Shown here: positions 2,692-59,231 of the stretch, in pieces
Layout: the number at the start of each line of letters is the position of its first letter
Position numbering within the stretch: position 1 is the first letter of the stretch
Assembly (NCBI GenBank): GCA_041675265.1
Contig: JBAYUD010000005.1
Location: 11,222 to 75,221, forward strand
Reading direction: 5' to 3'
DNA length: 64,000 bases
From: Desulfurivibrionaceae bacterium
Lineage (GTDB): Bacteria > Desulfobacterota > Desulfobulbia > Desulfobulbales > Desulfurivibrionaceae
Made by a program: the position numbers and the translations under genes
The notes under the pieces: generated by a model
The model's database searches: none
The model's input: the letters and a program-made list of their open reading frames with translations, nothing else
What the model was told of the DNA's origin: nothing

Positions 2692-4188
2692 GTGAAAAAA
2701 ATTTTATTGACCGCAGGTGCATTGCTGGCCTGGACAGGCTGCGCCGTTGCTGGAGCAGGTGGCCAGACTGTAGCCATTCCGGTAGAAGACTATAAAGCGA
2801 TTCTGGAACGTCTGGACACCTTGCAGAAGCGTGTTGACCAGATGGAAAAAACCGACAGCCCTTCCGGCAAGGCAGCTTCCGCCGCCATGCCGAGCAAGTT
2901 GGCCAAGGATGTGGAAACCATCTTCGATACCCTGGACAAGGTTGAAACCAAGACCTTGAAGGATCGGATCAACCTGGGTGCGGAGTTGCGGACCAGGGCT
3001 GATTTCTTCACCTTGAAAAACTCCACATCTTTAACCCCGGGATCTTTGGTGGCAGAAGAGCATAACGACAATTACTGGAGCAACCGCTTCCGTCTGAATC
3101 TTGATTCCGAGATCAGAAAGAACCTGTTGTTCACCGGTCGTGTTACTGCCTACAAGAATTTTGCCAACAACGAAAACAATGCGTTTGCTAATGACTCCAA
3201 TGCGGCCCATGTGCCTGGGGACAGCGGCTTGAAGCTGGATCGTGCTTATGTGGACTGGATTCCCGAGGACATGCCCATCCCGTTGGCCCTGACCTTCGGC
3301 CGTCATCCTTCCTCCGAGGGCCCTCCCTCCGAGTTGAAGGAGAACCGTCTCCGCCAGTCCACCTACCCCTCCCTTCTGTTTGACGGCGAGGCGGACGGCG
3401 TGGTGGCCACCGTTGGTTTGGAGCGGTATCTGGGGTGGAAGAACTCCGGTCTCCGTTTTGCATGGGGCAAGGCTTACCAAGACACCAATACTGCTGTAAG
3501 CTACATGGATAACGCTGGCGGAATGTATGATGACACCAATGTTTATGCCATGTTTTTCGAGACCGAGATTCCTGGGGTGCGGGACAGTCTTCTCGTCTTA
3601 AGTGCTCTCCAGGTGAAGAATTTGAATGCCGACACCTCATATTTTGGTGCAACTACCACTACCAAGGTAGATATCGGTGACATGAATTTGTATGGTGTTC
3701 ATGCGCAGGCCAATAATCTGATGGATTCAGGATTTGATCTGTTTGCTTCAGCAGGGATCAATGAAACAGACCCGAACGGCGCAACGGCCACTATTACTGG
3801 TGGTCCTTACAACGGGTATGCTCTCGGGTTGATGAATACTGGGGCGAATAACGATGAACATTCCGGGTGGGCTCTCCATGCCGGCCTGCGTTACAACATT
3901 GCGTATAAGCCATGGAACAACCCCAAGGTCGGCTTTGAGTACAATCATGGCAGCGACAATTGGTTCAGCTTTACCTGGGGCAGCGCCGAACTGTACAACA
4001 AGTTGGCTGCGCGCGGCGATGCTTATGATTTCTACTACATTCAGCCGTTCAACGACAATCTTTTTGGCCGCTTGGGATACACCCATATCGACTACAACTA
4101 TAGTAATAGCGGAATGCACATAGGCGATTTTGGTGATTCCATCACCGATCTTGACAATCTCTATTTCCTGCTCGACTGCCGCTTCTAA
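2692..4188 (+). CDS. DUF3373-like outer-membrane beta-barrel protein
   Basis: Signal peptide, N-terminal coiled coil (ILERLDTLQKRVDQME), alternating beta-strand pattern, LDRAYVDW segment, C-terminal Phe (LLDCRF); GGAGGAG RBS. Confidence 0.7.
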   Translation: MKKILLTAGALLAWTGCAVAGAGGQTVAIPVEDYKAILERLDTLQKRVDQMEKTDSPSGKAASAAMPSKLAKDVETIFDTLDKVETKTLKDRINLGAELRTRADFFTLKNSTSLTPGSLVAEEHNDNYWSNRFRLNLDSEIRKNLLFTGRVTAYKNFANNENNAFANDSNAAHVPGDSGLKLDRAYVDWIPEDMPIPLALTFGRHPSSEGPPSELKENRLRQSTYPSLLFDGEADGVVATVGLERYLGWKNSGLRFAWGKAYQDTNTAVSYMDNAGGMYDDTNVYAMFFETEIPGVRDSLLVLSALQVKNLNADTSYFGATTTTKVDIGDMNLYGVHAQANNLMDSGFDLFASAGINETDPNGATATITGGPYNGYALGLMNTGANNDEHSGWALHAGLRYNIAYKPWNNPKVGFEYNHGSDNWFSFTWGSAELYNKLAARGDAYDFYYIQPFNDNLFGRLGYTHIDYNYSNSGMHIGDFGDSITDLDNLYFLLDCRF

Positions 4189-13306: not shown

Positions 13307-15328
13307 TTATCTTGAGAACAGACCTGTGCCCGAGGCTCCTTCCGGTTGGGCGCCGGTCTGCCGTAATCCCGATGCGTCCTTGAGGTTTGCCCCCTTAAGA
13401 TTGGCGTTGGTCAGGTCAGCCTTGTAGAAATCAACCCCTTCCAGATCGGCATTCTCCAGATTGGCTCCGGTAAGGTTCGCGCCTTTGAGGTTGGCCCCTT
13501 CCAGGTCGGCGTCACGCAGGTTTGCCCCGGAGAGATTGCAGCGCTCAAGGACAGCCTCTTTCAGTTTTTTCCCGGAGAGATCCTGTCCGGCAAGGTTGCA
13601 TTCAACGCAGCGGTTGGATTGCAGGAGTTTTTCCAGGTCGGTAAGCTTGGGGCTTTCCGGCGGTTTCACCTCTTCCGGTATCTTGCTCAAGACCGGAGGA
13701 GGGGGTGGGGTCTGCGGGACTGGCGGAGCCACGGGCTGGACGGCGACGGGTGTGGCGGTCGGCACTGTCTCCGCTGCTGCCTTGGCCGGAGGCGTCACAG
13801 CGGCCGGAGCTGTTGCGACCGGACCGCTGGGAACGGCTGCGGCCAAGGCGACAGGGGGCTCCTCATCCGAGGGTATGGCCGGGGCCGTGCTGGGCGCCGG
13901 GGCAACGGCGACGTCGGCTGTGTCGTTTTCCTGCTCGGGGGTACCCAGCGTCGGCGTTGTTTGCATGGCCTGGAAGGATGGAGCCCACAGGTTTTCCACC
14001 TGGGCGCGATCTCTTTCCAGGGGATTTTTTCTCTTGGAGGGTGGAGGGGTTTTGCTGCGGTACTGGGCGAGGAAGGCATCGATGTCCTCTTTGGTGCCTT
14101 TCTGTCGCTCTTTCTCCATAATCGTTCCGATCAGGTACGCTCCCTCAAGGTCAGCCCCGGTCAGGATTGCCCCGGTGAGGTCGGCTTTGTAGAGATCGGC
14201 TCCGGCGAGATTTGCCCTGGTAAGATTTGCCTGGCTGAGGTTTGCCGTGGCCAGGTCCGCCGTCTTGAGGCTTGCCCCTTCCAGATTGGCTCCGCTCAGG
14301 TTGGCTCCGGCCAGATTCGCCCGATTCAGATTGAGGCCGGTGAGGTCTGCTCCGGCCAGGTTGCAGCCGGGACATGCGTTTTGGGCGACCAGACGTTCCA
14401 CCTCGGAGGTGGCTCCCGAGGGCACGGGCGGTTGAATCGCTGGTTTTTTTGTGACTCGGACCGGTGCGGGCTGCGCCGGAGGCGGTTCTGTCTGGGGCGG
14501 AGATACGGCGTCCACCGCCTGTACCGTCCGCGCCGGTTCCGGCAAGGAAGTTGGCAACTGGTTTTCCGCAATCTCGGGCGTCGTTTCCTTGCGGGGCAGG
14601 GCGGGCAACGATGCCGGGGTGGGAGTCGGTTCGGGAACGGGCTTCGGCAAAGGCATCGATGCCGGAGGGGACGGAACGGGAAGCGTGGGCGCAACCTTGG
14701 CTGCAACCGGAGCAGCAGCGGGAGGGGCCGGTGCTGCTTGCTGTGTCTCGGGCTGGGGAGCAGGTATGGCCGGTTCAGCCTTTTCCGGAAGTGCCGGGGC
14801 GGCGGGCGGTTCCGGCAGGGGCTTTTCCGGCCTTGTCAGGGCATTCTCCGGGGCGGTGTATGCCGAGCCTTCGAGGATTGCCCGCTCATGGTTGCTGCGG
14901 GCGAGGGAGGCGTCCTTGAAGTTGGCCCCCTTGATAAAGGCGCCGGAGAGATCCGCCTTGTAGAGATCAGCCTCTTCCAGGTTGGCGTCGATCAGGTTTG
15001 CCCCGGAGAGGTCAACGGCCTTGAGGTTTGCCCCTTCCAGATCGGCCCCGGCCAGGTTTGCCCTGGAAAGATTGCTCCGCTCCAGGCAGGCGGCGGCAAG
15101 CTTTGCCCGGCGCAGATCCGCGCCGGAAAGATCGCATTCCACGCACCGGTTGGTGGACTTCAGGGTTTCAAGGTCTTTTTCGGTGTAGGCTCCGGCTTGG
15201 CGGGCTGGGGCAGCCAGGCACAGAGAACAGAACAGCAGGGTGGCCGCGGATGTTTTTTTGTTTGAATGTGCCAACGTTTTGTGATCCCCCGGCCATCTTC
15301 CCGATGGCGCAATGTTTGCTTGCTTCAC
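13307..15328 (-). CDS. Exported pentapeptide-repeat protein with three repeat domains and Pro/Ala-rich linkers
   Basis: A(D/N)LxG pentapeptide runs in three blocks; signal-like N-terminus. True start may be TTG near 15275. Confidence 0.85.
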   Translation of the reverse strand: MKQANIAPSGRWPGDHKTLAHSNKKTSAATLLFCSLCLAAPARQAGAYTEKDLETLKSTNRCVECDLSGADLRRAKLAAACLERSNLSRANLAGADLEGANLKAVDLSGANLIDANLEEADLYKADLSGAFIKGANFKDASLARSNHERAILEGSAYTAPENALTRPEKPLPEPPAAPALPEKAEPAIPAPQPETQQAAPAPPAAAPVAAKVAPTLPVPSPPASMPLPKPVPEPTPTPASLPALPRKETTPEIAENQLPTSLPEPARTVQAVDAVSPPQTEPPPAQPAPVRVTKKPAIQPPVPSGATSEVERLVAQNACPGCNLAGADLTGLNLNRANLAGANLSGANLEGASLKTADLATANLSQANLTRANLAGADLYKADLTGAILTGADLEGAYLIGTIMEKERQKGTKEDIDAFLAQYRSKTPPPSKRKNPLERDRAQVENLWAPSFQAMQTTPTLGTPEQENDTADVAVAPAPSTAPAIPSDEEPPVALAAAVPSGPVATAPAAVTPPAKAAAETVPTATPVAVQPVAPPVPQTPPPPPVLSKIPEEVKPPESPKLTDLEKLLQSNRCVECNLAGQDLSGKKLKEAVLERCNLSGANLRDADLEGANLKGANLTGANLENADLEGVDFYKADLTNANLKGANLKDASGLRQTGAQPEGASGTGLFSR

Positions 15329-49336: not shown

Positions 49337-49399
49337 CAGCTCATCTACCATGTGTGGAAGGAGTAACGAAGCCGTCCTCGGGGCGGCTTCAGCTTTTTT
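49337..49399 (+). ncRNA. Candidate structured small RNA convergent on the DUF3800 operon
   Basis: Hairpin TCTAC/GTGGA, AGGAG linker, stem GAAGCCGTCC/GGGCGGCTTC, AGC, then TTTTTT; possible closing helix AGCT/AGCT. Confidence 0.55.
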
Positions 49400-49889
49400 G
49401 ACTATTCGTTCGCCAATAGTCATCATGTTCCCTCAGCAATTTTCGTTGCCGATGCGGCTGTTCAACCAGATAGGCTGTCCACGGAAGAATGTAATCGCCG
49501 CGATCTGCCAGGATGACCAAGTAGTTTTCCTGCGCGAACCATAAACACACCCTTTCTTCCTTGCCACGTCGGTTGCGCCAGATCTTAATGGCCGGATCGT
49601 CGTCGTGTTCAATGATCGGTCGAGGCCAGCGTATCCGCTCACAACGTCGGAAATCTGGCGTACGATCTTCCTCAATATCTCCGTCCTGGATCATGTGCCA
49701 GAAGGTCGCTTCCTTGCCATGGGTCAGCGGGTGCCGTTTCAAGCCGAGCCGCCGTCCCTGAAACAGAGGCTTGCTGTCGAGGAAGTCTTGCTTGAACCAG
49801 GCGTAAACGGCATCCAGATATGCATCCCAGTTGCCGTGGTAGTCGTTGAACAGGACCAGCGGCGGCAGCCAATCCGGCGTTGCGCTCAT
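49389..49889 (-). CDS. Uncharacterised DUF3800-partner protein
   Basis: 166-aa ORF starting 2 bp after the DUF3800 stop; FWHMI, RRCERIRWP and LPWTAY motifs. Confidence 0.8.
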   Translation of the reverse strand: MSATPDWLPPLVLFNDYHGNWDAYLDAVYAWFKQDFLDSKPLFQGRRLGLKRHPLTHGKEATFWHMIQDGDIEEDRTPDFRRCERIRWPRPIIEHDDDPAIKIWRNRRGKEERVCLWFAQENYLVILADRGDYILPWTAYLVEQPHRQRKLLREHDDYWRTNSQKS

Positions 49890-49891
49890 CC

Positions 49892-50596
49892 CTAAATCTC
49901 CGACGCGTGCCAGCGGAAAAGATTAACCTTTTCCTCGCGTAGCAGGGTCGATTTGGTCAAACAGTAGCCGGAGCGTTGCCGCATTCGTTCAATCAGCGCC
50001 ATTTTCCCGGCATTCCCCTGCAATCCTCGGTTCAGGTAAGCAACCGCGCCAATGAGCAGGTCGGCCAGTTGCAACTGCTCGATTTCGTGGGAGTGTACCA
50101 GTTGCAACCGTTCGATCACCTCTTGCGAGAAATCGTACCTGTCGTTGCACAGCACCTCGTGCAGCTTGGCCGCCTTCTCCGCCCCGCGAGTGTCCTTGAT
50201 GTCGAGGTATATCCGGTAGCTGGCATCGGGCCGGAAGATGACTTTCAGCATGTCGAAGTACATCTTGTAATACCAGCCGTCATGGTCCTGGCCGGGAAAG
50301 GCGTCGTGGTGCAGCAGAGTTTTGTCCGGCACGATCAAGGCACGGAAGTGCAGATCGTCGTCATCGAAGAAATAATCGACTAGATCAAGGTACAGCTCTT
50401 TCTTGGCAGGCGAAACCTTGGTCCACTTCACCTCAAAATGCGGCGGCAGTCCGTGCTTCTGTTTGATTTCGCGCAACCGGACGGCAATCTCCCTGGTCTT
50501 GTCCAACGGGCACCAGATGGCTCCCAGCACCATGGCCTTCTGGTGATCGTTTTCCAGATGGCAGGATTCATCACAGTAGATGTTATATGTGCTCAT
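49892..50596 (-). CDS. DUF3800-domain protein
   Basis: N-terminal IYCDESCH, VLGAI, EVKWTK and C-terminal QLADLLIG. Confidence 0.85.
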   Translation of the reverse strand: MSTYNIYCDESCHLENDHQKAMVLGAIWCPLDKTREIAVRLREIKQKHGLPPHFEVKWTKVSPAKKELYLDLVDYFFDDDDLHFRALIVPDKTLLHHDAFPGQDHDGWYYKMYFDMLKVIFRPDASYRIYLDIKDTRGAEKAAKLHEVLCNDRYDFSQEVIERLQLVHSHEIEQLQLADLLIGAVAYLNRGLQGNAGKMALIERMRQRSGYCLTKSTLLREEKVNLFRWHASEI

Positions 50597-50641
50597 GATT
50601 GTTTTTGCCGTCTTATGATTTATCAGAACAAAAAAAAAGCA

Positions 50642-52408
50642 TTATGCCACCGCCTGTTCGACGATGGCGTCGGCCAATTGGACTTGGGTAATTTTGGCGT
50701 CGTGCAACCGTTCTTTGAGGGTGTCGCAGAGGGCCAGCAGTTCATCGACTTTGGCGACGATGCGGTGTTGTTCGGCTAGTGGGGGCAGTGCTATTAACAA
50801 CATACGAATTTGATCTCTCGAAACATTTTTCATCGAACTACTCGTACCACCGGCAACTCTTGAATAATACTCACGGGAGGAAGAACTCCCATTCGCCAAA
50901 TTAACAAATTGAGTATTGCTGCTCCGTGAAAATACAAATCTGATAATTTTATCACTCATCATAAGACGAGGAGGAGTTTCTTTCGGGACTATAACAGCAC
51001 GTGCTACAAGTTCTGATGTATTAGCTCTCGAAATCAAAAAATCATCAGGAAAAACTTCAAATTCAGGTCTCGGTCTTAAATTAGCCGGTAATGCTTTGTT
51101 TTCATCTGGGTTATATTGGCCCCACGAAACTGCGCTTACTTTGAGAACACCCCAATCATTATCTTTTCTTGGGGTGGGCTCACAATTGGGGCTCCATCCA
51201 GCTTCAGAACGTAAAGCGAGATCATCCAGCCTTACCCACCCCCAACCTACCGGCAAATCAAAAGGCTTTTCATCCTCACTGATTTTCGGCAAAGTTTTTT
51301 GCTTTTTGATTTTGCCTTCTTTAATGAGTTTTGCTTTTTCTTTGGCGATTTTTTCCAGCAGGGTGCTGGCGGGTTCGTCGTTGGGGTTTTGGGGGACGAG
51401 TTTGCCCATGACGGCGAGTTGGAGGATGGTTTGTTTGAGTTGGTCGATGGACTCTTCGGTGGTGAACAGGGTGTCGAAGTGACCCACGATGCGTTGCCAG
51501 CTTACAGCAAACTCGGCTGGATCGGCGACGGTGGTGAGGGTGGCAAGCAGGGTTTCCACCAGGGTTTGGTGGGTATCGTTACTGTCGGCTTGTTGCTGTT
51601 CCAGCTTGTCGCAGAGGGCCATCAGTTCATCGACTTTGGCGACGATGCGGTGTTGTTCGGCTTTTGAAGTAATTGGGAACAAAGCAAGCCGGGCTTTTTC
51701 AGTGCCCATGCGTGGAAGATTCATTCCATGAGTTGAATCATTAGCATACCGAATAAAGCAGGGGGACTTCATTACAAGCCGGAGGTACTGCGAGGCTATA
51801 TGAGCATAGCCTTTGAGAGGGACCATTTCAGTTGTGCAAATCCCGTTTTCATCAGCCACTATTACTTTGTCGAGATATGGCCGCAATTTCCCGTAGATCA
51901 CGTCCCCTTTAGAAAATACATTCTTTGAACTTCTAAACTGTCTATCAGCAACTCTTACTTTTTGTAAAAGCTTGGAAGTATCTTTTTCGACGTCCTCTAA
52001 TTCAAGAATCCAGGTGTCCTCACTAACGGAACCAGGCTCAGCTTTTTCTGAAAATCCATAATCAGTAACGTTTCCAAGCCGTGTCCACCCCCACCCTTTC
52101 GGCAATTCATATGGCTTTTCATCCTCGCTGATTTCCGGCAGGGACGTATCTTTTTTGATTTTGCCTTCCTTAATGAGCCGAGCTTTTTCTTTGGCGATTT
52201 TTTCCAACAATACGCTGGCCGGTTCGTCTTTTGGGTCTTGCGGCACCAGTTTGCCTCGCACGGCCAATTCCAAAATCAACTCCCGCAACTTCTTAATGCC
52301 ATGCGGGCTTTGCCCGTTCGACCCTCTCCCGCGCCCCCTCCCGCCATTGGCCTTGGGAATTTCAGCACCAGTCCAGGTGGCAATATGTTCGGTAATCAAA
52401 TCCATCAT
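50642..52408 (-). CDS. hsdS: Type I RM specificity subunit (EcoAI/type IB-like, two TRDs)
   Basis: Duplicated conserved regions (IL.LAV.GKLVPQ.P.DEPAS.LLEKI; EQHRIVAKVDEL.ALCD) around two AT-rich TRDs. Confidence 0.95.
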   Translation of the reverse strand: MMDLITEHIATWTGAEIPKANGGRGRGRGSNGQSPHGIKKLRELILELAVRGKLVPQDPKDEPASVLLEKIAKEKARLIKEGKIKKDTSLPEISEDEKPYELPKGWGWTRLGNVTDYGFSEKAEPGSVSEDTWILELEDVEKDTSKLLQKVRVADRQFRSSKNVFSKGDVIYGKLRPYLDKVIVADENGICTTEMVPLKGYAHIASQYLRLVMKSPCFIRYANDSTHGMNLPRMGTEKARLALFPITSKAEQHRIVAKVDELMALCDKLEQQQADSNDTHQTLVETLLATLTTVADPAEFAVSWQRIVGHFDTLFTTEESIDQLKQTILQLAVMGKLVPQNPNDEPASTLLEKIAKEKAKLIKEGKIKKQKTLPKISEDEKPFDLPVGWGWVRLDDLALRSEAGWSPNCEPTPRKDNDWGVLKVSAVSWGQYNPDENKALPANLRPRPEFEVFPDDFLISRANTSELVARAVIVPKETPPRLMMSDKIIRFVFSRSSNTQFVNLANGSSSSREYYSRVAGGTSSSMKNVSRDQIRMLLIALPPLAEQHRIVAKVDELLALCDTLKERLHDAKITQVQLADAIVEQAVA

Positions 52409-52477
52409 GACGGGGTCACCTTGTTTCCATTTGGAGCCAGCAAATTCACGGTCAAACGGATCAGGAGATCCTCCCTT

Positions 52478-52897
52478 AAATGCAGAATTAAAAATGGCAA
52501 ATGCAAAATTATTGTTTCCCCAGGTTGTTCTTTGTATTCTTGATGATTGTAACGAAGATCGCTGTCAACTCTCTTGATTCCTGAAGCAAATCCGCAAGGT
52601 TGCTCTCGGTCATGATCCCACCTTCGACCAGCAATTCAAGCCAGTATGTTGTTTCATCGAGTTCCTTGAGACAATCACCCATCTTAGCCACAAACTCTGC
52701 TTTGGATCTGCCACGCGACGCCTCCCTGTAGTTTGCGCCGACCGATGTACCGGAACGTAGCACTTGTTTCCCTAATACTCTCGCTTCAGTCGACTTTGGC
52801 AATGTCGAATACATGGCTAAAATCCGCAGGGCAAATTTCTTAGTCCGATCTTTCAGGTCTTTCTCGTTTTGCATTCTAAATTCTACTTTTTGCCTTT
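52478..52897. repeat. Inverted 7-nt-periodic arrays flanking the four-helix-bundle gene
   Basis: Plus strand 52478-52512: AAATGCA GAATTAA AAATGGC AAATGCA AAATTAT. Minus strand 52897-52863: AAAGGCA AAAAGTA GAATTTA GAATGCA AAACGAG. Confidence 0.65.
52509..52874 (-). CDS. Four-helix-bundle protein (23S rRNA IVP / bAvd-like family)
   Basis: LKDRTKKFALRI, QVLRSGTSVGANYREA, SKAEFVAK, ELDETTYWLELL. Confidence 0.92.
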   Translation of the reverse strand: MQNEKDLKDRTKKFALRILAMYSTLPKSTEARVLGKQVLRSGTSVGANYREASRGRSKAEFVAKMGDCLKELDETTYWLELLVEGGIMTESNLADLLQESRELTAIFVTIIKNTKNNLGKQ

Positions 52898-53339
52898 ATG
52901 CAGCTTGCTCCATCTCGGAGAGTCCCTTTTCTGCCAGGCGCCTCTCGTTGGTGGTATAGCCTTGGATCAGGTGGTCTTTCAGGACCGAAGTCGCCCAAAT
53001 GCGAAATTGGGTGCCGCGTTGCGACTTGACCCGGTAGCCGACGGAAATAATGACGTCAAGATTATAGAAGGCGACCGGTTTATCTGAATTTGCAATATGC
53101 ATTTTTTGCATATTGCTTTCCTCGGCCAACTCTCCTTCCTTGAAAACATTGCGGAGATGACGGGAGATGACGGACTGATCTCTTTGAAAAAGCTCAACCA
53201 TCTGGGTCTGGCTCAACCAGACGGTTTCATCAGCCAGATGCACGTCGAGTCCGGCCCGGCCGTCAGCGGACTTATAGATAATAATCTCACCCTGGGCGGG
53301 ATGACCTTGGTTGTCCATGCTCACTTCTTCACGTTTCAT
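52896..53339 (-). pseudogene. RhuM-family protein, N-terminal part only (Fic/DOC half missing)
   Basis: ETVWLSQTQMVELF, YNLDVIISVGYRVKS.RGTQFRIWAT; stops at EMEQAA exactly at the heptamer array. A C-terminal-like remnant (REDLLIRLTVNLLA) lies at 52405-52476. Confidence 0.7.
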
Positions 53340-54811
53340 TTGCCCTTCCCCAGACAGCCCAGGAGCTCCTTCTTCAAGGCCTCGCGGGTCGCCGCCACCT
53401 CGGCCTGCTGCCTGGCATACTTGGCCAGCAACACTTCGGGATCGTGGATGATCTGTTCGCCGACATGGGGGTTCTTGATATCCAGGTTGTAGCTGCGGGC
53501 TTTGATATCATCAATCGTGACCTTCCAGGCCTGTTCGGTTTCGACCCTGGCCGCAAAACCATCTGCCTCGCTGCCCCACCAGTCGATCTCCGGCTGGAAC
53601 TCTTCAAAGCGCATGGGCTTGGTCTTGTTATAGCTGACAACGCCTTCCGGGTAGGGGTGCTCGTAATACCAGATCTGCTCGGTGGGCTGGCCTTTGGTGA
53701 AAAAGAGCAAGTTGGTTTTGATGCCGGTGTAGGGGTTGAAGACGCCGTTGGGCAACCGGACAATGGTGTGCAGGTTGCACTCGGCCAGCAGTTTTTCCTT
53801 GAGGCGGGTCTTCATACCCTCGCCAAAGAAAAAGCCATCGGGCAGAACCACGGCGGCGCGGCCCTGATCTTTGAGCAGGTGGATGATCAGGGTCATGAAG
53901 AGGTCGGCGGTTTCTCGGGTGCGGAAGGTGGCCGGGAAGTTGTTTTCGATGCCGTCTTCTTCCATGCCGCCAAAGGGCGGGTTGGTGACGATGACCTTGA
54001 CCCGGTCTTTATTGGTGTAGTCCCGCAGGGGGCGGCTCAGGGTGTTGTCGTGCTTGATGTTGGTCGGGGTGTCGATGCCATGCAGAATCATGTTGGTAAC
54101 GCAGAGCATATGGGGCATGGACTTTTTCTCGACCCCGTTGATCGTGGCTTGCAGGGTCTCTTCATCCGCTGCCGATTTTACATAGTTTTTGCGCTTGTGC
54201 TCGATGGTGCAGGACAAAAAGCCGCCGGTGCCGCAGGCTGGGTCGAGCACGGTTTCGTCTAGTGTGGGGTTGACCCGATCGACGATAAATCTGGTGACGG
54301 CCCGTGGGGTGTAGAACTCCCCGGCATTGCCGGCGGATTGCAGGTCTTTAAGAATCTGCTCGTAAATGGAGCCGAAGGTATGGCGATCTTCCTTGGTGTT
54401 GAAGTTGATCTCGCAGATTTTATTGATCACCTGACGCATCAGGGTGCCGGATTTCATGTAGTTGTAGGCGTCTTCAAAAACGTCTTTCACCACCAGCGCC
54501 CGTTTGCCGCCCGGCCCCAGGGTATTGAGTTTGTTTTTCAGGGTCGGGAAGAGCTGGAGATTAACAAAATCGGACAACTCGTCACCGGTCATCCCTTCCG
54601 AATCCTTGGCCCAGGACCGCCAGCGGAGATGAGCCGGCAGCGGGGATTTGTAGTCATCTTCGAGAAGTTCCAGCTCGGCTTCGCGGTCGTCAAAGATTTT
54701 CAGAAAAAACATCCAGACCAACTGACTGATGCGCTGGGCATCGCCATCGACACCGACATCCTTGCGCATGATGTCCTGGATGGATTTGATGATGCCGGAA
54801 ACGTTACTCAT
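53336..54811 (-). CDS. hsdM: Type I RM m6A methyltransferase subunit
   Basis: GEFYTPR, LDPACGTGGFL, NPPF motif IV, ATFRTRETADLF. Confidence 0.97.
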   Translation of the reverse strand: MSNVSGIIKSIQDIMRKDVGVDGDAQRISQLVWMFFLKIFDDREAELELLEDDYKSPLPAHLRWRSWAKDSEGMTGDELSDFVNLQLFPTLKNKLNTLGPGGKRALVVKDVFEDAYNYMKSGTLMRQVINKICEINFNTKEDRHTFGSIYEQILKDLQSAGNAGEFYTPRAVTRFIVDRVNPTLDETVLDPACGTGGFLSCTIEHKRKNYVKSAADEETLQATINGVEKKSMPHMLCVTNMILHGIDTPTNIKHDNTLSRPLRDYTNKDRVKVIVTNPPFGGMEEDGIENNFPATFRTRETADLFMTLIIHLLKDQGRAAVVLPDGFFFGEGMKTRLKEKLLAECNLHTIVRLPNGVFNPYTGIKTNLLFFTKGQPTEQIWYYEHPYPEGVVSYNKTKPMRFEEFQPEIDWWGSEADGFAARVETEQAWKVTIDDIKARSYNLDIKNPHVGEQIIHDPEVLLAKYARQQAEVAATREALKKELLGCLGKGK

Positions 54812-57156
54812 GCGGATTGCTCCTGATTAAACAACTCTTTCTCCAATTCCTGAATGGCGTTTTCGTACTCTGTTTTCCCGCCAAAGACCTGATTGATAAT
54901 CTCCATGGGGGTGCCCATATCGCTGAAGGGCTGGAGCTTGAGGATCTTGGCGTTTTCAAGGGAACGGATACCTTCATTGGCGTAGTTATCGAGCAAGGCG
55001 GTGAGTACTGCCCGGGCCTGCTCGCCGTATTTGGTAAAGTAGTTGCGTTTTTTGACATTATTGGCCCGCTCTTTACGGGTAAGCGGGGGCTGATCATAGG
55101 CGATATGACAGATAAGGTCAAAGTCTCCGTAGTCACGACCCACTTCCTCGGCAAGATTATCAAGCACGATGCCGTGTTCTTCCAGGAGTTCGAGAATTAT
55201 CTGTTTCTTTTGCGCGCTGTTCCATCTGCGGAGGAAATCATCAAGGGTCGCAAACTCTGACTTGATCTGCTTGCGGGAAAAATCCCGGTACGATTCGGTA
55301 ATCAGGGTGCCGTCCGGGCCGATGTATTCGATCCGCTCGGCGATGATTTTGGCCGAAACCCCGCTGATGTAAACTTTTTTGCTCTCACAAGTTTCCGGTG
55401 GATCGATTACAGGATCGTCATCATATGGTTTCGGGTCGGGCGGAACAGGGGGTTCATCCGGGCCGGGCTCAAAGATAACCACCGGCTCACCGTCAAAATC
55501 AGGATCTCGGAACAGCTCGGTAGCCTTCTTAAAATCCATGATGGTGAAGTAGTACTTGTTTTGCTCTTCCTCGATCCGGGTGCCGCGCCCGATGATCTGC
55601 TTGAACATGGTCATGGAGTTGATATTTTTATCCAAGACAATGACCTTGCAGGTTTTGGCATCCACCCCGGTGGACAAGAGCTCCGAGGTTGTGGCGATAA
55701 CCGGGAACTTGCTTTCCGGATCGATAAAGTTGTCGAGTTCGGCTTTGCCCTCGACACTGTCGCCGGTGATGCGCATCACATATTTAGGGTTATCGATGGC
55801 GATTTGCCCGGCAGCATTCACGATGGCGCGGCGCATGCGTTCGGCGTGGTCGATATCCTCACAGAAAATAATGGTTTTCGCGAAGGGATCGGTGGCATTG
55901 AGAAGTTGCATGACCCGTCTGGCCACCAGCCTTGTCCGCTGATTGAGAACGAGGATGCGGTCCATATCTTTCTGGTTATAGGTCCGACTTTCGATTTCCT
56001 GACCAAGGTCATCAAGCATTCCCGGAGGTGGTGTCCAGCCTTCGATATCTTTATCGATATCGATACGCACCACCTTATAGGGGGCGAGAAAACCATCCTC
56101 GATGCCCTGCTTTAAGCTGTAAGTATAAACAGGCTCACCAAAATAGGTGAGGTTGGAAACATATTTTGTTTCCTTGGGGGTGGCTGTCATGCCGAGTTGG
56201 ATGGCGCTTGAAAAATAATCGAGGATTTCGCGCCAGGCCGAATCGTCGGCAGCGCTGCCGCGATGACACTCGTCAATGACGATCATGTCGAAAAAGTCTG
56301 GAGAGACGTTTTTGAAGATTTTGTCCTCTTCGTCTGTCCCGGTTATGGCCTGATAGAGAGCGAGATGGATTTCGTAGGACGGGTCGATCTTGCGGTTTTT
56401 GACCTTGGCCATGACCGAGCCGAAGGGCTTGAAATCGTTGACCAGGGTTTGGTCGGCAAGGATATTGCGATCAACCAGAAAGAGAACGCGCTTGACGGCC
56501 TTTGCCTTCCAGAGTCGCCAGATAATTTGAAAGGTGGTGTAAGTCTTGCCGGTGCCGGTGGCCATGACCAGCAGAATGCGCTTTTGGTTGTTGGCCACCG
56601 CTTCAACCACTCGGTTAATGGCCTCGGTCTGATAGTAGCGGGGCTCTTTGCCGGAACTGTCCGTGTGATAGGGCTGCAGGACCAGCTCATCGGAAGTATC
56701 ATTGATGCCGCGAAATGATTTATAGCGTTGCCAAAGTATTTCGGGTGGAGGAAACGCTTCGAGCGGAAATTCCGTTTCAATGTCTTCGCCGATCTTTATT
56801 GCTTCTTTATTATGCGAGGCAAAGGCATCACCGTTAGAACTGAAGGCGCTGGGAACTTTGAGTATATCTGCATAGCCCAATGCTTGCTGCATACCGTCGC
56901 TCACGGTGTGGTTGTTGTCCTTGGCTTCGACTACCGCGACGGGGACACCGGGCTCCCAAGAAAGGATGTAATCTGCGAATTTTTTCTTCTTCTTGTTCCG
57001 GGACGACATATTGCCCCGCACAATAACAGGGCCTGGGGTGAGAGTAACCTCGCGCCGAATCTGTTTTAATTGATCCCAGCCAGCATCTTTAAGGGCAGGC
57101 GTGATGAACAAATCGCAGATATCGATTTCGCTGAGTTCTTTTTTGTCCATTTGCAA
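54808..57156 (-). CDS. hsdR: Type I RM restriction subunit (EcoEI/EcoAI-like)
   Basis: AVVEAK nuclease, RYYQ, MATGTGKT, DECHRG, QIIGRGTR, EcoEI-type C-terminus. Confidence 0.97.
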   Translation of the reverse strand: MQMDKKELSEIDICDLFITPALKDAGWDQLKQIRREVTLTPGPVIVRGNMSSRNKKKKKFADYILSWEPGVPVAVVEAKDNNHTVSDGMQQALGYADILKVPSAFSSNGDAFASHNKEAIKIGEDIETEFPLEAFPPPEILWQRYKSFRGINDTSDELVLQPYHTDSSGKEPRYYQTEAINRVVEAVANNQKRILLVMATGTGKTYTTFQIIWRLWKAKAVKRVLFLVDRNILADQTLVNDFKPFGSVMAKVKNRKIDPSYEIHLALYQAITGTDEEDKIFKNVSPDFFDMIVIDECHRGSAADDSAWREILDYFSSAIQLGMTATPKETKYVSNLTYFGEPVYTYSLKQGIEDGFLAPYKVVRIDIDKDIEGWTPPPGMLDDLGQEIESRTYNQKDMDRILVLNQRTRLVARRVMQLLNATDPFAKTIIFCEDIDHAERMRRAIVNAAGQIAIDNPKYVMRITGDSVEGKAELDNFIDPESKFPVIATTSELLSTGVDAKTCKVIVLDKNINSMTMFKQIIGRGTRIEEEQNKYYFTIMDFKKATELFRDPDFDGEPVVIFEPGPDEPPVPPDPKPYDDDPVIDPPETCESKKVYISGVSAKIIAERIEYIGPDGTLITESYRDFSRKQIKSEFATLDDFLRRWNSAQKKQIILELLEEHGIVLDNLAEEVGRDYGDFDLICHIAYDQPPLTRKERANNVKKRNYFTKYGEQARAVLTALLDNYANEGIRSLENAKILKLQPFSDMGTPMEIINQVFGGKTEYENAIQELEKELFNQEQSA

Positions 57157-57310
57157 ACTGCTCCTAGGGAAACCGGGACAGATTTATTGTATATGCATGG
57201 CTAGCCGCACAGCGCATGACCACTAAAAAATCCTAACGGAATATTGCCCGACCATTTGATCATATTTGCAATTAAATTCATAGGGATATGTCATTTTGTT
57301 TTTTTCAGTT

Positions 57311-58159
57311 TCATTTGATATCCTCAGGCGAACGCAATGATCGACTCCCAAGCACATAGGCGCCAACCTCAAGCTCCAGATGGTACCGCCTATCCCACTC
57401 CGGGGCTGGGGCAAAACGCCAAACCCAACTATCACAAGGCGGCTCCAGACCCCCCTCCCCCAGAATAACCTCCCGCTCCAGCTCGCTTTCATCCAATCCC
57501 CGGACCACCAAGGCGCGGTCTCCAATGAGAAGCCGCACTCCGGGCAGATCCCGCAGCCATTCGAGATGACGAAGCGCTGCGGCCCGACGGAGGTGCATGG
57601 AAAATTCCTCTTCCCGGGAACACCCTTTCTTCAGCCACTTGGCAGGCAGGTGGCCGAGCTGGGAGGCAAGATTCACGGAGACGGTGAGGTCGCAACTCGA
57701 GGCGAGAGCGGGGGGCAGACTTGGCGAGGCTTGGCGGAAGAGGGATATCGCCGGTTCGTCGTCCAGTCCATTGCCTGCCTGGTACAGTTTCTCCACCGCC
57801 CCGGTGCAATCGAAATCAACACAGGCGATGTTGGGGGCCACGGCTTCGGCCTTGCGACGGTTGCGGGGCAGGTGCAGGATATCGGCCAGGATTACCTGTT
57901 GGAAACGACCGGCCAGCTCGGCCAGGGGCACATCGTTGATCAGGCCACCCCCTAAGATCAAGGCGGTGCGGTGCTGGGAGCAGGTGTCGGCCGCAGCGAG
58001 GATGGCGGCGCGGCTGCGTTTGAGGTGCGGCTCCCAGCTGGCGCGGTTTCGTTGGCAACGGGCTTCGATGGCAAGCTGTTCCCGGAGAAAACCCATCCGC
58101 CGGAGATACCGGGGGCAGGGAGTGAGCAGGCTTTCCAGCCACAGAGTGATCAGGGACAT
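57311..58159 (-). CDS. Hypothetical protein, possible SAM-methyltransferase-like fold
   Basis: LILGGGLINDVPL..VILADI resembles Rossmann motif I; DLTVSVNLASQL. Confidence 0.55.
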   Translation of the reverse strand: MSLITLWLESLLTPCPRYLRRMGFLREQLAIEARCQRNRASWEPHLKRSRAAILAAADTCSQHRTALILGGGLINDVPLAELAGRFQQVILADILHLPRNRRKAEAVAPNIACVDFDCTGAVEKLYQAGNGLDDEPAISLFRQASPSLPPALASSCDLTVSVNLASQLGHLPAKWLKKGCSREEEFSMHLRRAAALRHLEWLRDLPGVRLLIGDRALVVRGLDESELEREVILGEGGLEPPCDSWVWRFAPAPEWDRRYHLELEVGAYVLGSRSLRSPEDIK

Positions 58160-58197
58160 AATGGTGCGGGGAGAGATGGGGAGGTCATATCAAGCGC

Positions 58198-59037
58198 TTA
58201 TCCTTTCTTCTTGGGGCGCGGCTTGGCGGGCGGTAAAAAATTCTCTCCGGAGACCACCGCTTTGCCGGTCTTGGCCTCCAGCGCCTTGCGCGCTTGCTTG
58301 GCTATCGCCCCGCCTTTTTTTGCCGCCCCCTTGTTTTCAGTCATCCCGGTTGCTTCATCCGTCTCGGCAATCTGTCGTGTCGATAACTCCGCCAGGGCGG
58401 TGAAAATCAGTTCCGCCTCGCTCATGTGGTCGCGCAGGTTCTGATCCTGCAAACCCTTCATCGCCTTGTGCGTCTTCACGCTCACCCCCGACCATTCCTG
58501 GTGGATGATGCTGGTGAGAATGGCGAATTCCTCCTTTTTGGTGATTTCGTGGCTTGCCCAGTAATCGGTCAGCTTGTTGCGCGTTTCCTGCCCGGTCATG
58601 CGCTGCTGGATCCATTTTTCGCTACGCCCGTGCTTCTGCCAGGTTTCGCGGGCGCGTTCCAGCGACAGCGCCGGATCAGCCATTTCCTGCATGCGCTCGT
58701 GGCCCACTTTAGCCAGCCAGAGCTTGATCGGCTCCGCCTTCGGGCTGGGAACGGATTGCACCAAACGCAGCAGGGTCTCGGCGGTGGCCACGTCGGTAAG
58801 ACGTTGCTTGCCGTCTTCGGCGGTCATTTTCAACTGGTGACAATTTGTCACCAGTTGGCTCCCTTCTTTGCCCAGCCGCTCTTTCAGTTTGTTCCAGTAC
58901 TTGCGTGCCGTCTGAAAATCCGGCTGCTGGGTCAACGCCTGAATGATATCCACCACCGAGAACCACCAGATTCCGGTTTCCTCGTCATAGACACGGCGGA
59001 TGGCGTGGGTTTCGAAAAAAGCGGATTGAAGTTGCAT
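58198..59037 (-). CDS. BRO-family (Bro-N) DNA-binding protein
   Basis: IRRVYDE..WWFSVVDII.AL..RKYWNKLKERL, PSPKAEPIKLWLA, LRDHMSEAELIFTALAE. Confidence 0.88.
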   Translation of the reverse strand: MQLQSAFFETHAIRRVYDEETGIWWFSVVDIIQALTQQPDFQTARKYWNKLKERLGKEGSQLVTNCHQLKMTAEDGKQRLTDVATAETLLRLVQSVPSPKAEPIKLWLAKVGHERMQEMADPALSLERARETWQKHGRSEKWIQQRMTGQETRNKLTDYWASHEITKKEEFAILTSIIHQEWSGVSVKTHKAMKGLQDQNLRDHMSEAELIFTALAELSTRQIAETDEATGMTENKGAAKKGGAIAKQARKALEAKTGKAVVSGENFLPPAKPRPKKKG

Positions 59038-59156
59038 GACTCGGCTCCTGACCATGGCATTCCGGGAAAATCAGGGATACTCCCCAGTTTCTTTTTGCCG
59101 CGGCAAAGTTCGGTTGTTGACGGCGGCGGAATATACTATTATTCAATACATCATCA

Positions 59157-59231
59157 GGGCGATTAGCTCAGCGGGAGAGCACTGCCTTCACACGGCAGGG
59201 GTCACTGGTTCGATCCCAGTATCGCCCACCA
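59157..59231 (+). tRNA. tRNA-Val (anticodon CAC)
   Basis: GGGCGAT/ATCGCCC acceptor stem, TAGCTCAG, CTGCC-TTCACAC-GGCAG anticodon arm, GGTTCGATCC, encoded CCA. Confidence 0.97.

Follow-up and report, generated by a model that had tools for sequence, protein, structure and literature searches.

A gene from the protein family of 23S rRNA intervening sequences (IVSs) interrupts a type I restriction-modification operon of a Desulfurivibrionaceae bacterium (GenBank assembly GCA_041675265.1, contig JBAYUD010000005.1, positions 11,222 to 75,221). It belongs to a 432-nt cassette with exact borders that occupies the place of the middle of a rhuM-doc gene. The whole 64-kb stretch analyzed here is henceforth termed the window; all genes of interest lie on its minus strand, in the order hsdR-hsdM-rhuM'-IVP-'rhuM-hsdS. 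Within the cassette, a single open reading frame (ORF) encoding a four-helix-bundle member of Pfam family 23S_rRNA_IVP (PF05635; IVP or S23p) is enclosed by two inverted arrays of degenerate heptamers, and inverted, covarying arrays of period 7 are a family-wide feature of homologous loci. We consider it probable that the cassette is an IVS-type S23p unit of 432 bp, without a promoter of its own, that resides in an mRNA operon, with an RNA stem, processing or gating at that stem, insertion followed by deletion, and spread by recombination as its mechanism.

The window's gene arrangement recurs on a 105-kb ENA metagenome contig (L089) and on a JGI contig (L001), and a related operon with an intact rhuM-doc gene (L107) served as reference for the borders. 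The features are as follows.

54808..57156, minus strand: hsdR, type I restriction subunit, 782 aa (Pfam ResIII 3.8e-46, EcoEI_R_C 8.4e-38 and HSDR_N)
53336..54811, minus strand: hsdM, 491 aa (Pfam N6_Mtase 4.6e-78 and HsdM_N; L089 and L107 share the gene order)
52905..53339, minus strand: native 5' part of rhuM-doc, codons 1-145 (Pfam Virulence_RhuM; 96% nucleotide identity to intact L107)
53339..52896, minus strand: rhuM fragment ORF as called, 147 codons, with its TAA (52898-52896) inside the cassette
52473..52904, minus strand: cassette, 432 nt (from alignment to L107 and from lake-metagenome contig X15)
52864..52904, minus strand: 5' arm, degenerate heptamer array (from the sequence; lag-7 match 17/28; arm of the inverted repeat)
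52509..52874, minus strand: IVP/S23p gene, four-helix-bundle protein of 121 aa, PF05635 (Pfam 23S_rRNA_IVP, E 3.5e-20)
52473..52513, minus strand: 3' arm, degenerate heptamer array in inverted orientation (from the sequence; lag-7 match 16/28; arm of the inverted repeat)
52405..52472, minus strand: 3' remnant of rhuM-doc, ending in DLLIRLTVNLLAPNGNKVTPS and a stop (matches the C-terminus of the L107 protein P0354; L107 DNA homology resumes at 52472)
50642..52408, minus strand: hsdS, 588 aa (Pfam Methylase_S; same position in L107 and L089)

The hsdM stop and the rhuM start overlap as ATGA, and the TGA of an orphan frame behind the cassette (52407-52405) overlaps the hsdS ATG (52408-52406), again as ATGA. 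A preliminary description of this region, made from the letters alone, had placed the rhuM TAA at 52896-52898, the IVP start inside an array and the orphan-frame TGA across the hsdS ATG; each of these statements proved correct on the minus strand, and the operon coupling that it proposed is indeed kept through the overlaps with hsdM and hsdS. A RhuM gene between hsdM and hsdS with overlapping stops and starts is the arrangement that characterizes RhuM/Fic-Doc genes of type I restriction-modification operons. The sole Rfam match in the window is a tRNA (59157-59228), and the cassette does not lie in a 23S or 16S rRNA helix.

Comparison with intact relatives defines what the cassette replaced. 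The rhuM ORF of the window covers only positions 15-70 of the 252 positions of the Pfam Virulence_RhuM profile; full-length relatives measure 321-347 aa and combine PF13310 with PF02661 (Fic/Doc). Among them is P0354, the intact RhuM/Fic-Doc protein of 341 aa encoded in the L107 operon hsdR-hsdM-rhuM/fic-hsdS, whose DNA is ~96% identical to the window on either side of the cassette. Homology to L107 reaches window position 52905 (ending in ATGGAGCAA) and restarts at 52472 (beginning with AGGATCTCCTGATCCG). Between these junctions, the window has 432 nt (52473-52904) and L107 exactly 523 nt, and as 523 + 2 nt amount to 175 codons, the intact L107 gene is in frame. Its replaced segment contains the Doc/Fic motif HPFSDGNKR (HPFSDGNKRIGSF). 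The Fic/Doc domain with HPFxDGNKR, present in P0354 and eight other full-length homologues, is missing from the window gene, which is a remnant with its Doc toxin half gone. At the other border, the orphan frame (REDLLIRLTVNLLAPNGNKVTPS, followed by a stop) agrees with the end of P0354 (QKDLLIRLTVNLLAPNGNKVIPS) in 20 of 23 residues and also matches other RhuM/Fic C-termini; judged by these residues, it is the true RhuM-Doc C-terminus, a match on which the preliminary description had staked its proposal beforehand. Retained beside the cassette are the last ~21-23 rhuM-doc codons, the hsdS ribosome-binding region and the ATGA overlap. The same junctions occur in a lake metagenome, where contig X15 matches window positions 52113-52472 and 52905-53112 with 523 nt between them, and contigs of other metagenomes break exactly at 52472 and 52905. 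The replacement of the middle of a RhuM/Fic-Doc gene, claimed in the preliminary description, is thereby established. Alignment to L107 revealed no target-site duplication at the junctions. A candidate microhomology, AAGGCAAAA, shared by the right-junction sequence of the native gene and the left array, was not significant against shuffles in local alignment and was rejected.

Other RhuM-Doc genes have also lost internal sequence. Close homologues on long contigs (P0127, P0142/P0135, P0184 and P0197/P0218) often carry differing in-frame internal deletions of the linker or of part of Doc and are free of the cassette. From these cases, counter-selection seems to act frequently on the toxin half, and the RhuM-Doc gene appears to be either a deletion hot spot or counter-selected. 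The best-conserved RhuM peptide, SNMQKMHIA, has as its coding sequence a perfect 10-bp palindrome, GCAATATGCA-AAAAA-TGCATATTGC (53096-53120, minus strand, inside rhuM); ~45-60 nt around it (~53059-53119) reach a depth of up to ~700x in several metagenomes, with many contigs diverging on both sides.

In the window, the left arm reads TAAAGGC AAAAAGT AGAATTT AGAATGC AAAACGA (coding strand, 5' to 3'), with the IVP ATG (52874-52872) inside the fourth unit, AGAATGC, and a stop in every frame (TAA, TAG, TAG). The right arm, from the IVP stop codon, reads TTGCATT TGCCATT TTTAATT CTGCATT TAAGGG. At the start of the IVP ORF, array sequence covers its first few codons, and on the other side it reaches the stop codon. 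Tandem Repeats Finder called no period-7 array, either in this region or in the whole window; it is unsuited to units as degenerate as these, and an autocorrelation statistic was used for that reason. The best 28-nt self-match at lag 7 was 17 upstream and 16 downstream, compared with a mean of 10.5 (sd 2.0) in 110-nt tiles of the window. Scores of 16-17 are reached by 0.6-0.8% of the tiles, which places the upstream array in the top 0.6% and each array in the top 1%. An inverted repeat of 31 nt with 71% complementarity (52478-52508 / 52860-52890) brackets the IVP ORF, and the 3' arm contains a direct repeat (AAATGCAGAATTA/AAATGCAAAATTA) at a spacing of 21 nt, or 3x7. The duplex of the two 45-nt arms was computed at -17.5 kcal/mol versus -11.0 +/- 3.0 kcal/mol for shuffles, 30 of 1000 of which reach the native value. 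In the best register, found by eye, a perfect 10-bp helix of the AGAAUGCAAA/UUUGCAUUCU type includes the AUG, and weaker pairing continues almost to the cassette ends. By itself, the array signal in the window is modest.

Across the family, the same signal is decisive. Close relatives of the IVP number in the thousands, from which we assembled 80 genome loci (61-82% identity; Verrucomicrobiota, Thermodesulfobacteriota, Chloroflexota, Nitrospirota and others) and several metagenome loci, with period statistics computed on 82 non-redundant loci. At most of them, short tandem 7-nt repeats that are purine-rich on the sense strand precede the gene and their reverse complement follows it, as in GAATTAT/GAAGGAT with TTCATAA/CCTTCAT, AAGGCTA with TAGCCTT, AATGACC with GGTCATT, or AAATGCA with TTTTGCA. 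Lag 7 was the best period in 69 of the 82 upstream and 70 of the 82 downstream flanks, with mean matches of 18.7 and 19.8 of 28 (other lags ~12), versus 28 of 335 control windows from the same loci (mean 10.6). The preliminary description had expected inverted 7-mer arrays to be enriched around homologues, as is the case. Cassettes with proteins 65-70% identical can differ wholly in their unit (AAGGATG, AAAGGCT, AATGACC, AAAATGC), and two loci, L035 and L013, carry two cassettes on one contig with different heptamers. With units that vary between loci and are complementary within a locus, each cassette has its own heptamer and keeps its ends complementary. The layout also holds for more remote IVP genes (36-50% identity), which lie on the same contigs or on viral ones, with units AATCCGA, ATAATGG/ATAATTG and a perfect AATTCGT x4 / ACGAATT x4. 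The last is found on a viral or proviral IMG/VR contig (L110:1400-1950), where AATTCGT x4 directly precedes the ATG and ACGAATT x4 directly follows the TAA of an IVP gene of 46% identity.

Complementarity between the two sides was evident in several measures. The upstream flank matched the reverse-complemented downstream flank better than all 20 shuffles in 62 of 82 loci. The predicted arm duplex (mean energy -42.8 vs -29.9) surpassed all 15 shuffles in 56 of 84 loci and contained the AUG in paired form in 60 of 84. The top heptamer was identical on both sides after reverse complementing in 25 of 86 loci, against 3.4 expected from cross-locus pairs. In a subset of 11 loci with a shared register, 78% of cells pair versus 32-52% with a slid partner, and 16 of 33 pairs carry compensatory changes, both sides being altered (e.g., GC<->UA), a level reached in 0 of 500 shuffles. 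A single pairing register for all loci was ruled out, as registers vary.

Two further ideas about the arrays were rejected. Stops in all three frames occur at 38 of 82 loci versus 22.8 expected, an enrichment too mild to make them the purpose of the arrays. Long open frames at L058, L034 and L017 had raised the idea that the cassette is read through in another frame; of 84 loci, just 1 has the +1 frame and 10 have the +2 frame open across the IVP ORF on the sense strand, all of them GC-rich. The flanks of L080 (~2950-3420) carry the unit AATGACC / TTGGTCA, which we take to equal a heptamer of the cyanobacterial short tandemly repeated repetitive (STRR) sequences; a link between STRR sequences and IVP cassettes may thus exist.

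The encoded protein is conserved in fold and sequence. As claimed in the preliminary description, it belongs to the 23S rRNA IVS protein family (Pfam E 3.5e-20; PDB 2rld, E 3e-26) and has the fold of Avd, the accessory protein of diversity-generating retroelements (DGRs). Its AlphaFold2 model is a four-helix bundle (predicted local distance difference test score, pLDDT, 92.9) for which Foldseek returned the S23-family protein 2rld (template modelling score, TM, 0.81-0.91), Xcc0516 (2gsc) and DGR Avd (4dwl/8ub7), with an overall TM of 0.72-0.91. The family motif (Q)xxRxxxSxxxNxxE is present. Relative to the homologue at L002, the proportion of nonsynonymous differences (pN) is 0.105 and that of synonymous differences (pS) 0.825, the latter saturated, which argues that the protein and not the RNA alone is under selection. 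Judged by these substitutions, the IVP is a functional protein under purifying selection.

The IVP gene has neither a promoter-like site next to its start nor a terminator-like site at its side. On the coding strand, the closest promoter-like match lies ~190 nt upstream, inside rhuM, and counts of such matches are near the shuffle expectation. In about 80% of cases, the cassette and its flanking ORFs point in one direction. The window itself is absent from public RNA runs, being contained in DNA metagenomes alone. At a homologous peat-bog locus (L042), the upstream gene and the IVP gene are connected by metatranscriptome contigs, as are the IVP gene and the downstream gene, so that both junctions are spanned; this shows co-transcription at this one locus. 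The L042 metatranscriptome contigs also reveal array-length variants. In run X54, a low-depth contig (L042:2964-3351) has both arrays and 40 nt in place of the IVP ORF, which recalls the short, ORF-less IVSs of enterobacteria, and in run X26 other contigs have shortened or altered upstream arrays (L042:2928-2972).

Cassettes inside other genes bear on how the replacement arose. In L002-L008, the cassette splits an ORF6N gene (AFTEQGV and a stop before it, MRAFTKLR after it), and L006 differs from L002 by a further deletion that joins TGGAAAATTG in the gene to an identical decamer in the array, a microhomology joint. Seven cassettes, in seven species-level genomes, lie inside hsdM (L017, L022, L031, L034, L037, L045 and L058; ~3001-3370 in most), and their IVPs form one clade, 85-98% identical to one another and at most 80% identical to all others. 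The junctions of this clade are nested: L037 keeps hsdM as far as DPACGSGGM and again from VLANPPFN, L034 and L058 keep the left junction of L037 and resume at AWVQHFIHH, and L022, L031, L045 and L017 have lost progressively more of hsdM on one or both sides. Nested junctions are expected from one insertion followed by outward deletions that abut an intact, selected cassette. Because the hsdM remnants of the seven loci are still highly similar to one another, dead hsdM and cassette seem to travel as a unit. The preliminary description had held that the cassette itself removed the toxin domain; the nested hsdM junctions and the microhomology deletion between L006 and L002 point instead to insertion and later deletions that started in the arrays. 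Most simply, the 523-nt loss in the window would be a secondary deletion that stopped rightward at the hsdS ribosome-binding region and the ATGA overlap. As the intermediate, a full rhuM-doc gene with the cassette, was not found, we infer this order of events.

The spread of the cassette is recorded at L001, which has the same cassette with the same junctions. The 5' part of its rhuM is ~65% identical to the window DNA, and identity rises to ~98% some 45 nt before the junction and persists into hsdS. This jump makes it evident that different hsd operons have swapped the segment with the cassette through homologous recombination. Related cassettes occupy dozens of unrelated contexts in several phyla, most of them intergenic with intact neighbours. 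Recent transposition was rejected as an explanation, because P0109 and P0097 (nine contigs each) always occur in one context; with identical IVPs always in one context, transposition, if any, is rare. The idea of a transposase-less mobile cassette, raised in the preliminary description, holds for the missing transposase and the many unrelated contexts of relatives. Among ~80 flanking ORFs per side are HsdR (6), HsdM (5), Fic (4), ORF6N (2), Cas6 (2), Cas4 (4), Eco57I-type methylases (4) and HsdS (2), the remainder being parts of housekeeping operons. Several of the loci are orthologous, so the enrichment of defence loci is suggestive and not rigorous.

We propose that these observations reflect the following course. 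The cassette would be transcribed together with its operon, and in the RNA the arrays would pair into an imperfect stem of ~35 bp that encloses the ORF and sequesters its AUG, in the manner of S23p-encoding 23S rRNA IVSs. This stem may be cut by RNase III, may gate translation of the IVP, or both, in which case the IVP would depend on ribosomes arriving from the upstream gene. The cassette itself would have arrived by a rare insertion event, after which the dead neighbour gene was probably eroded by deletions from the slippage-prone arrays, halted where selection forbids, here at the hsdS translation signals. The cassette-bearing allele would then have spread between hsd operons through homologous recombination.

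Several points weigh against this proposal. The stem in the window is weak, with 71% complementarity and p ~0.03. Folded as a whole, the cassette gains no stability over shuffled sequences at the minimum free energy (z +1.37), and this structure has no terminal stem; the arms pair in the centroid structure alone. Good pairing was the criterion by which the 11-locus subset was picked, so its paired fraction is biased upward. Cassettes in antisense orientation to the adjacent genes also exist (the P0097 loci), which fits poorly with strict dependence on operon read-through. The RNA runs exist as contigs without end information, and contigs cannot reveal cleavage. No clean pair of filled and empty sites with an insertion footprint was found, insertion before deletion being read from other loci; at L042, an empty site is represented by one low-support joint (2931->3398), which is insufficient for an insertion footprint. 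Finally, complementarity of the arms could be maintained by DNA template switching between inverted repeats and not by selection on RNA.

A broader possibility, which we put forward tentatively, is that PF05635 cassettes with covarying inverted heptamer arrays are widespread, undescribed intervening sequences of polycistronic mRNAs, of which rRNA IVSs would be a special case. Their stem would be processed by RNase III or act as a gate, the Avd-like protein would secure retention or spread by acting on the stem-bounded RNA or DNA that encodes it, and the arrays would make flanking genes, often those of defence or toxin systems, prone to deletion.

Unlikely, though the strongest of the competing accounts, is a DNA-level element akin to foldback transposons or MITEs (miniature inverted-repeat transposable elements). 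Its arrays would be terminal inverted repeats for a recombinase or transposase supplied in trans, or would form single-stranded DNA hairpins or cruciforms, with RNA pairing incidental and complementarity kept through template switching or gene conversion. Such an element would explain why the cassette ends coincide with the outer array ends (52473 and 52904), why, in contigs with a different context, the junction to the L042 cassette falls on the first array unit, why array copy number varies between strains (here and in PMC4990558), and why relatives are scattered over dozens of contexts in several phyla. It is opposed by the junctions, which have neither target-site duplication nor significant microhomology, by the lack of a transposase among the 8 neighbouring ORFs scanned and by the single copy in 64 kb, a search of the window having returned no second cassette. 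Different heptamers of two cassettes on one contig (L035, L013) make a shared end-recognizing enzyme unlikely, and identical IVP proteins in one context only give no sign of recent transposition.

We think it improbable that the arrays are binding sites of the encoded protein, a presumed Avd-like pentamer, in an autoregulatory circuit or a self-packaging ribonucleoprotein whose protein spacing would set the heptamer period. In line with this idea, the protein is under strong purifying selection, it folds like Avd, which acts bound to RNA and reverse transcriptase (8ub7 is among the matches), and the units are multiple on both sides of the gene. Yet the units differ completely between cassettes whose proteins are 65-70% identical, and a protein-binding array has no need of inverted complementarity.

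Still more improbable is RNA-level mobility, suggested in the preliminary description, by copying and replacement, in which the stem-bounded RNA would be excised and reverse-transcribed by a host enzyme with the IVP in the role of Avd, the cDNA then replacing a stretch of the target. This account is invited by the homology of the IVP to Avd and by the repeated occurrence of cassettes where part of a gene is missing (rhuM-doc in the window, ORF6N at L002, hsdM at seven loci). However, no reverse transcriptase was detected among the neighbouring ORFs scanned, the hsdM cases are one clade with nested junctions as expected from a single insertion and later deletions, L006 compared with L002 displays a deletion directly, and most cassettes are intergenic with intact neighbours.

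That nothing more is present than the A-rich leader and T-rich trailer of a small accessory gene, of low complexity by chance, in a decayed rhuM-doc pseudogene is barely credible: Tandem Repeats Finder found no array, the whole-cassette fold is not unusually stable and RhuM-Doc homologues are often internally deleted without a cassette (P0127, P0142, P0184, P0197), but family-wide inverted and covarying period-7 arrays contradict it, as do the window arrays, each in the top 1% for lag 7, and the exact junctions of the cassette.

The operon has further neighbours. Directly downstream of hsdS (49389-50596, minus strand), a gene for a DUF3800 protein of 234 aa overlaps through its stop with the start codon of a 166-aa ORF that lacks a Pfam match; this pair may form another module of the same island of defence genes. 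Upstream of hsdR (57311-59228) lie a 282-aa ORF, a gene for a Bro-N domain protein (58198-59055) and a tRNA gene (59157-59228, plus strand), and the hsd operon may be part of an island integrated beside the tRNA. Elsewhere in the window, three short arrays of a similar 15-nt unit (AGGTTTGCCCCGGCC-like) at 13473-13510, 14208-14256 and 15024-15063, ~750 nt apart, are unrelated to the cassette.

For annotation, the IVS-type reading explains split or apparently replaced genes beside cassettes, here the 147-aa RhuM-Doc stub and the 23-codon orphan frame and elsewhere hsdM and ORF6N, and it provides a rule for recognizing cassette ends. A further suggestion is that the arrays promote deletions in their vicinity and so remodel defence islands.

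Among known systems, MITEs and non-autonomous insertion sequences are marked by target-site duplications and shared terminal repeats, neither of which the cassette exhibits. Eukaryotic foldback transposons have long terminal inverted repeats built of short tandem repeats, are much larger and encode a transposase in some members; their likeness to the cassette is a formal analogy only. Heptameric repeats are known from Xanthomonas (GGGAATC, 70-75 convergent pairs) and from cyanobacteria including Nostoc (STRR; GGGGAYT); their description draws no connection to S23p (Rehm et al. 2015, PMC4692102). Like the cassette arrays, they have a 7-nt unit, lie between genes in operons, vary in length between strains and are frequently paired in inverted orientation; unlike them, they are G-rich and genome-wide with one unit per genome, so that a relationship is a lead only.

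DGRs offer a parallel at the protein level. Avd is described in the literature as a homopentamer that binds nucleic acid and works bound to RNA and reverse transcriptase, and it shares the four-helix-bundle fold with the IVP (Foldseek TM 0.74-0.83 to 4dwl). In contrast to DGRs, the 8 ORFs at 49389-59055 contain no reverse transcriptase domain, template and variable repeats (TR/VR) not having been specifically searched for. We know of no description of heptamer arrays as a DGR feature. The genomic setting has a precedent in cas loci, in which 23S_rRNA_IVP genes were found wedged and were discussed as possible Cas-associated proteins, with no flanking repeats described (Zhang, Doak & Ye 2013, PMC3936711). 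These and the genes of the present set are alike as small extra genes in defence operons; in the present set, Cas4, Cas6, HsdR, HsdM and HsdS are among the neighbours. In the literature that we searched, the coverage of which is incomplete so that a prior description is possible, inverted heptamer arrays bordering PF05635 genes outside rRNA were not described.

The closest counterpart is the IVS in the 23S rRNA of Coxiella burnetii, which is 428 nt long, holds an S23p ORF and ends in a 28-bp terminal stem cut by RNase III, with the 5' cleavage site at the first repeat (Warrier et al. 2016, PMC4990558). Two to three tandem heptamers (GACAGAT), their number varying between strains, stand just upstream of its ATG, and the ORF is thought to be decaying and untranslated (PMC4990558). 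S23p IVSs of Coxiella and Leptospira and the window cassette agree in size (428 vs 432 nt), in a single sense PF05635 ORF, in complementary termini with a stem of ~28-35 bp around that ORF, in tandem heptamers just upstream of its start, and in a sporadic distribution without a transposase, which suggests horizontal transfer. They differ in location, the cassette lying in rhuM-doc between hsdM and hsdS and not in 23S rRNA helix 9, 25 or 45, and the window ORF, unlike that of Coxiella, is intact and under purifying selection. RNase III excision, a feature of S23p IVSs, is conceivable in the window by analogy, and cleavage of an mRNA would separate cistrons, unlike cleavage of an rRNA. Point by point except for its mRNA location, the window element thus matches the Coxiella IVS, which is what identifies it to us as a probable IVS-type cassette in an mRNA operon. 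This reading links two observations that had remained unconnected for ~30 years, S23p-encoding 23S rRNA IVSs and the many 'four helix bundle protein' genes in bacterial operons (restriction-modification and CRISPR loci included), under one architecture in which an ORF is enclosed by inverted, covarying heptamer arrays; the nature and origin of IVSs and the role of S23p would thereby become testable in ordinary operons and by large-scale comparative genomics.

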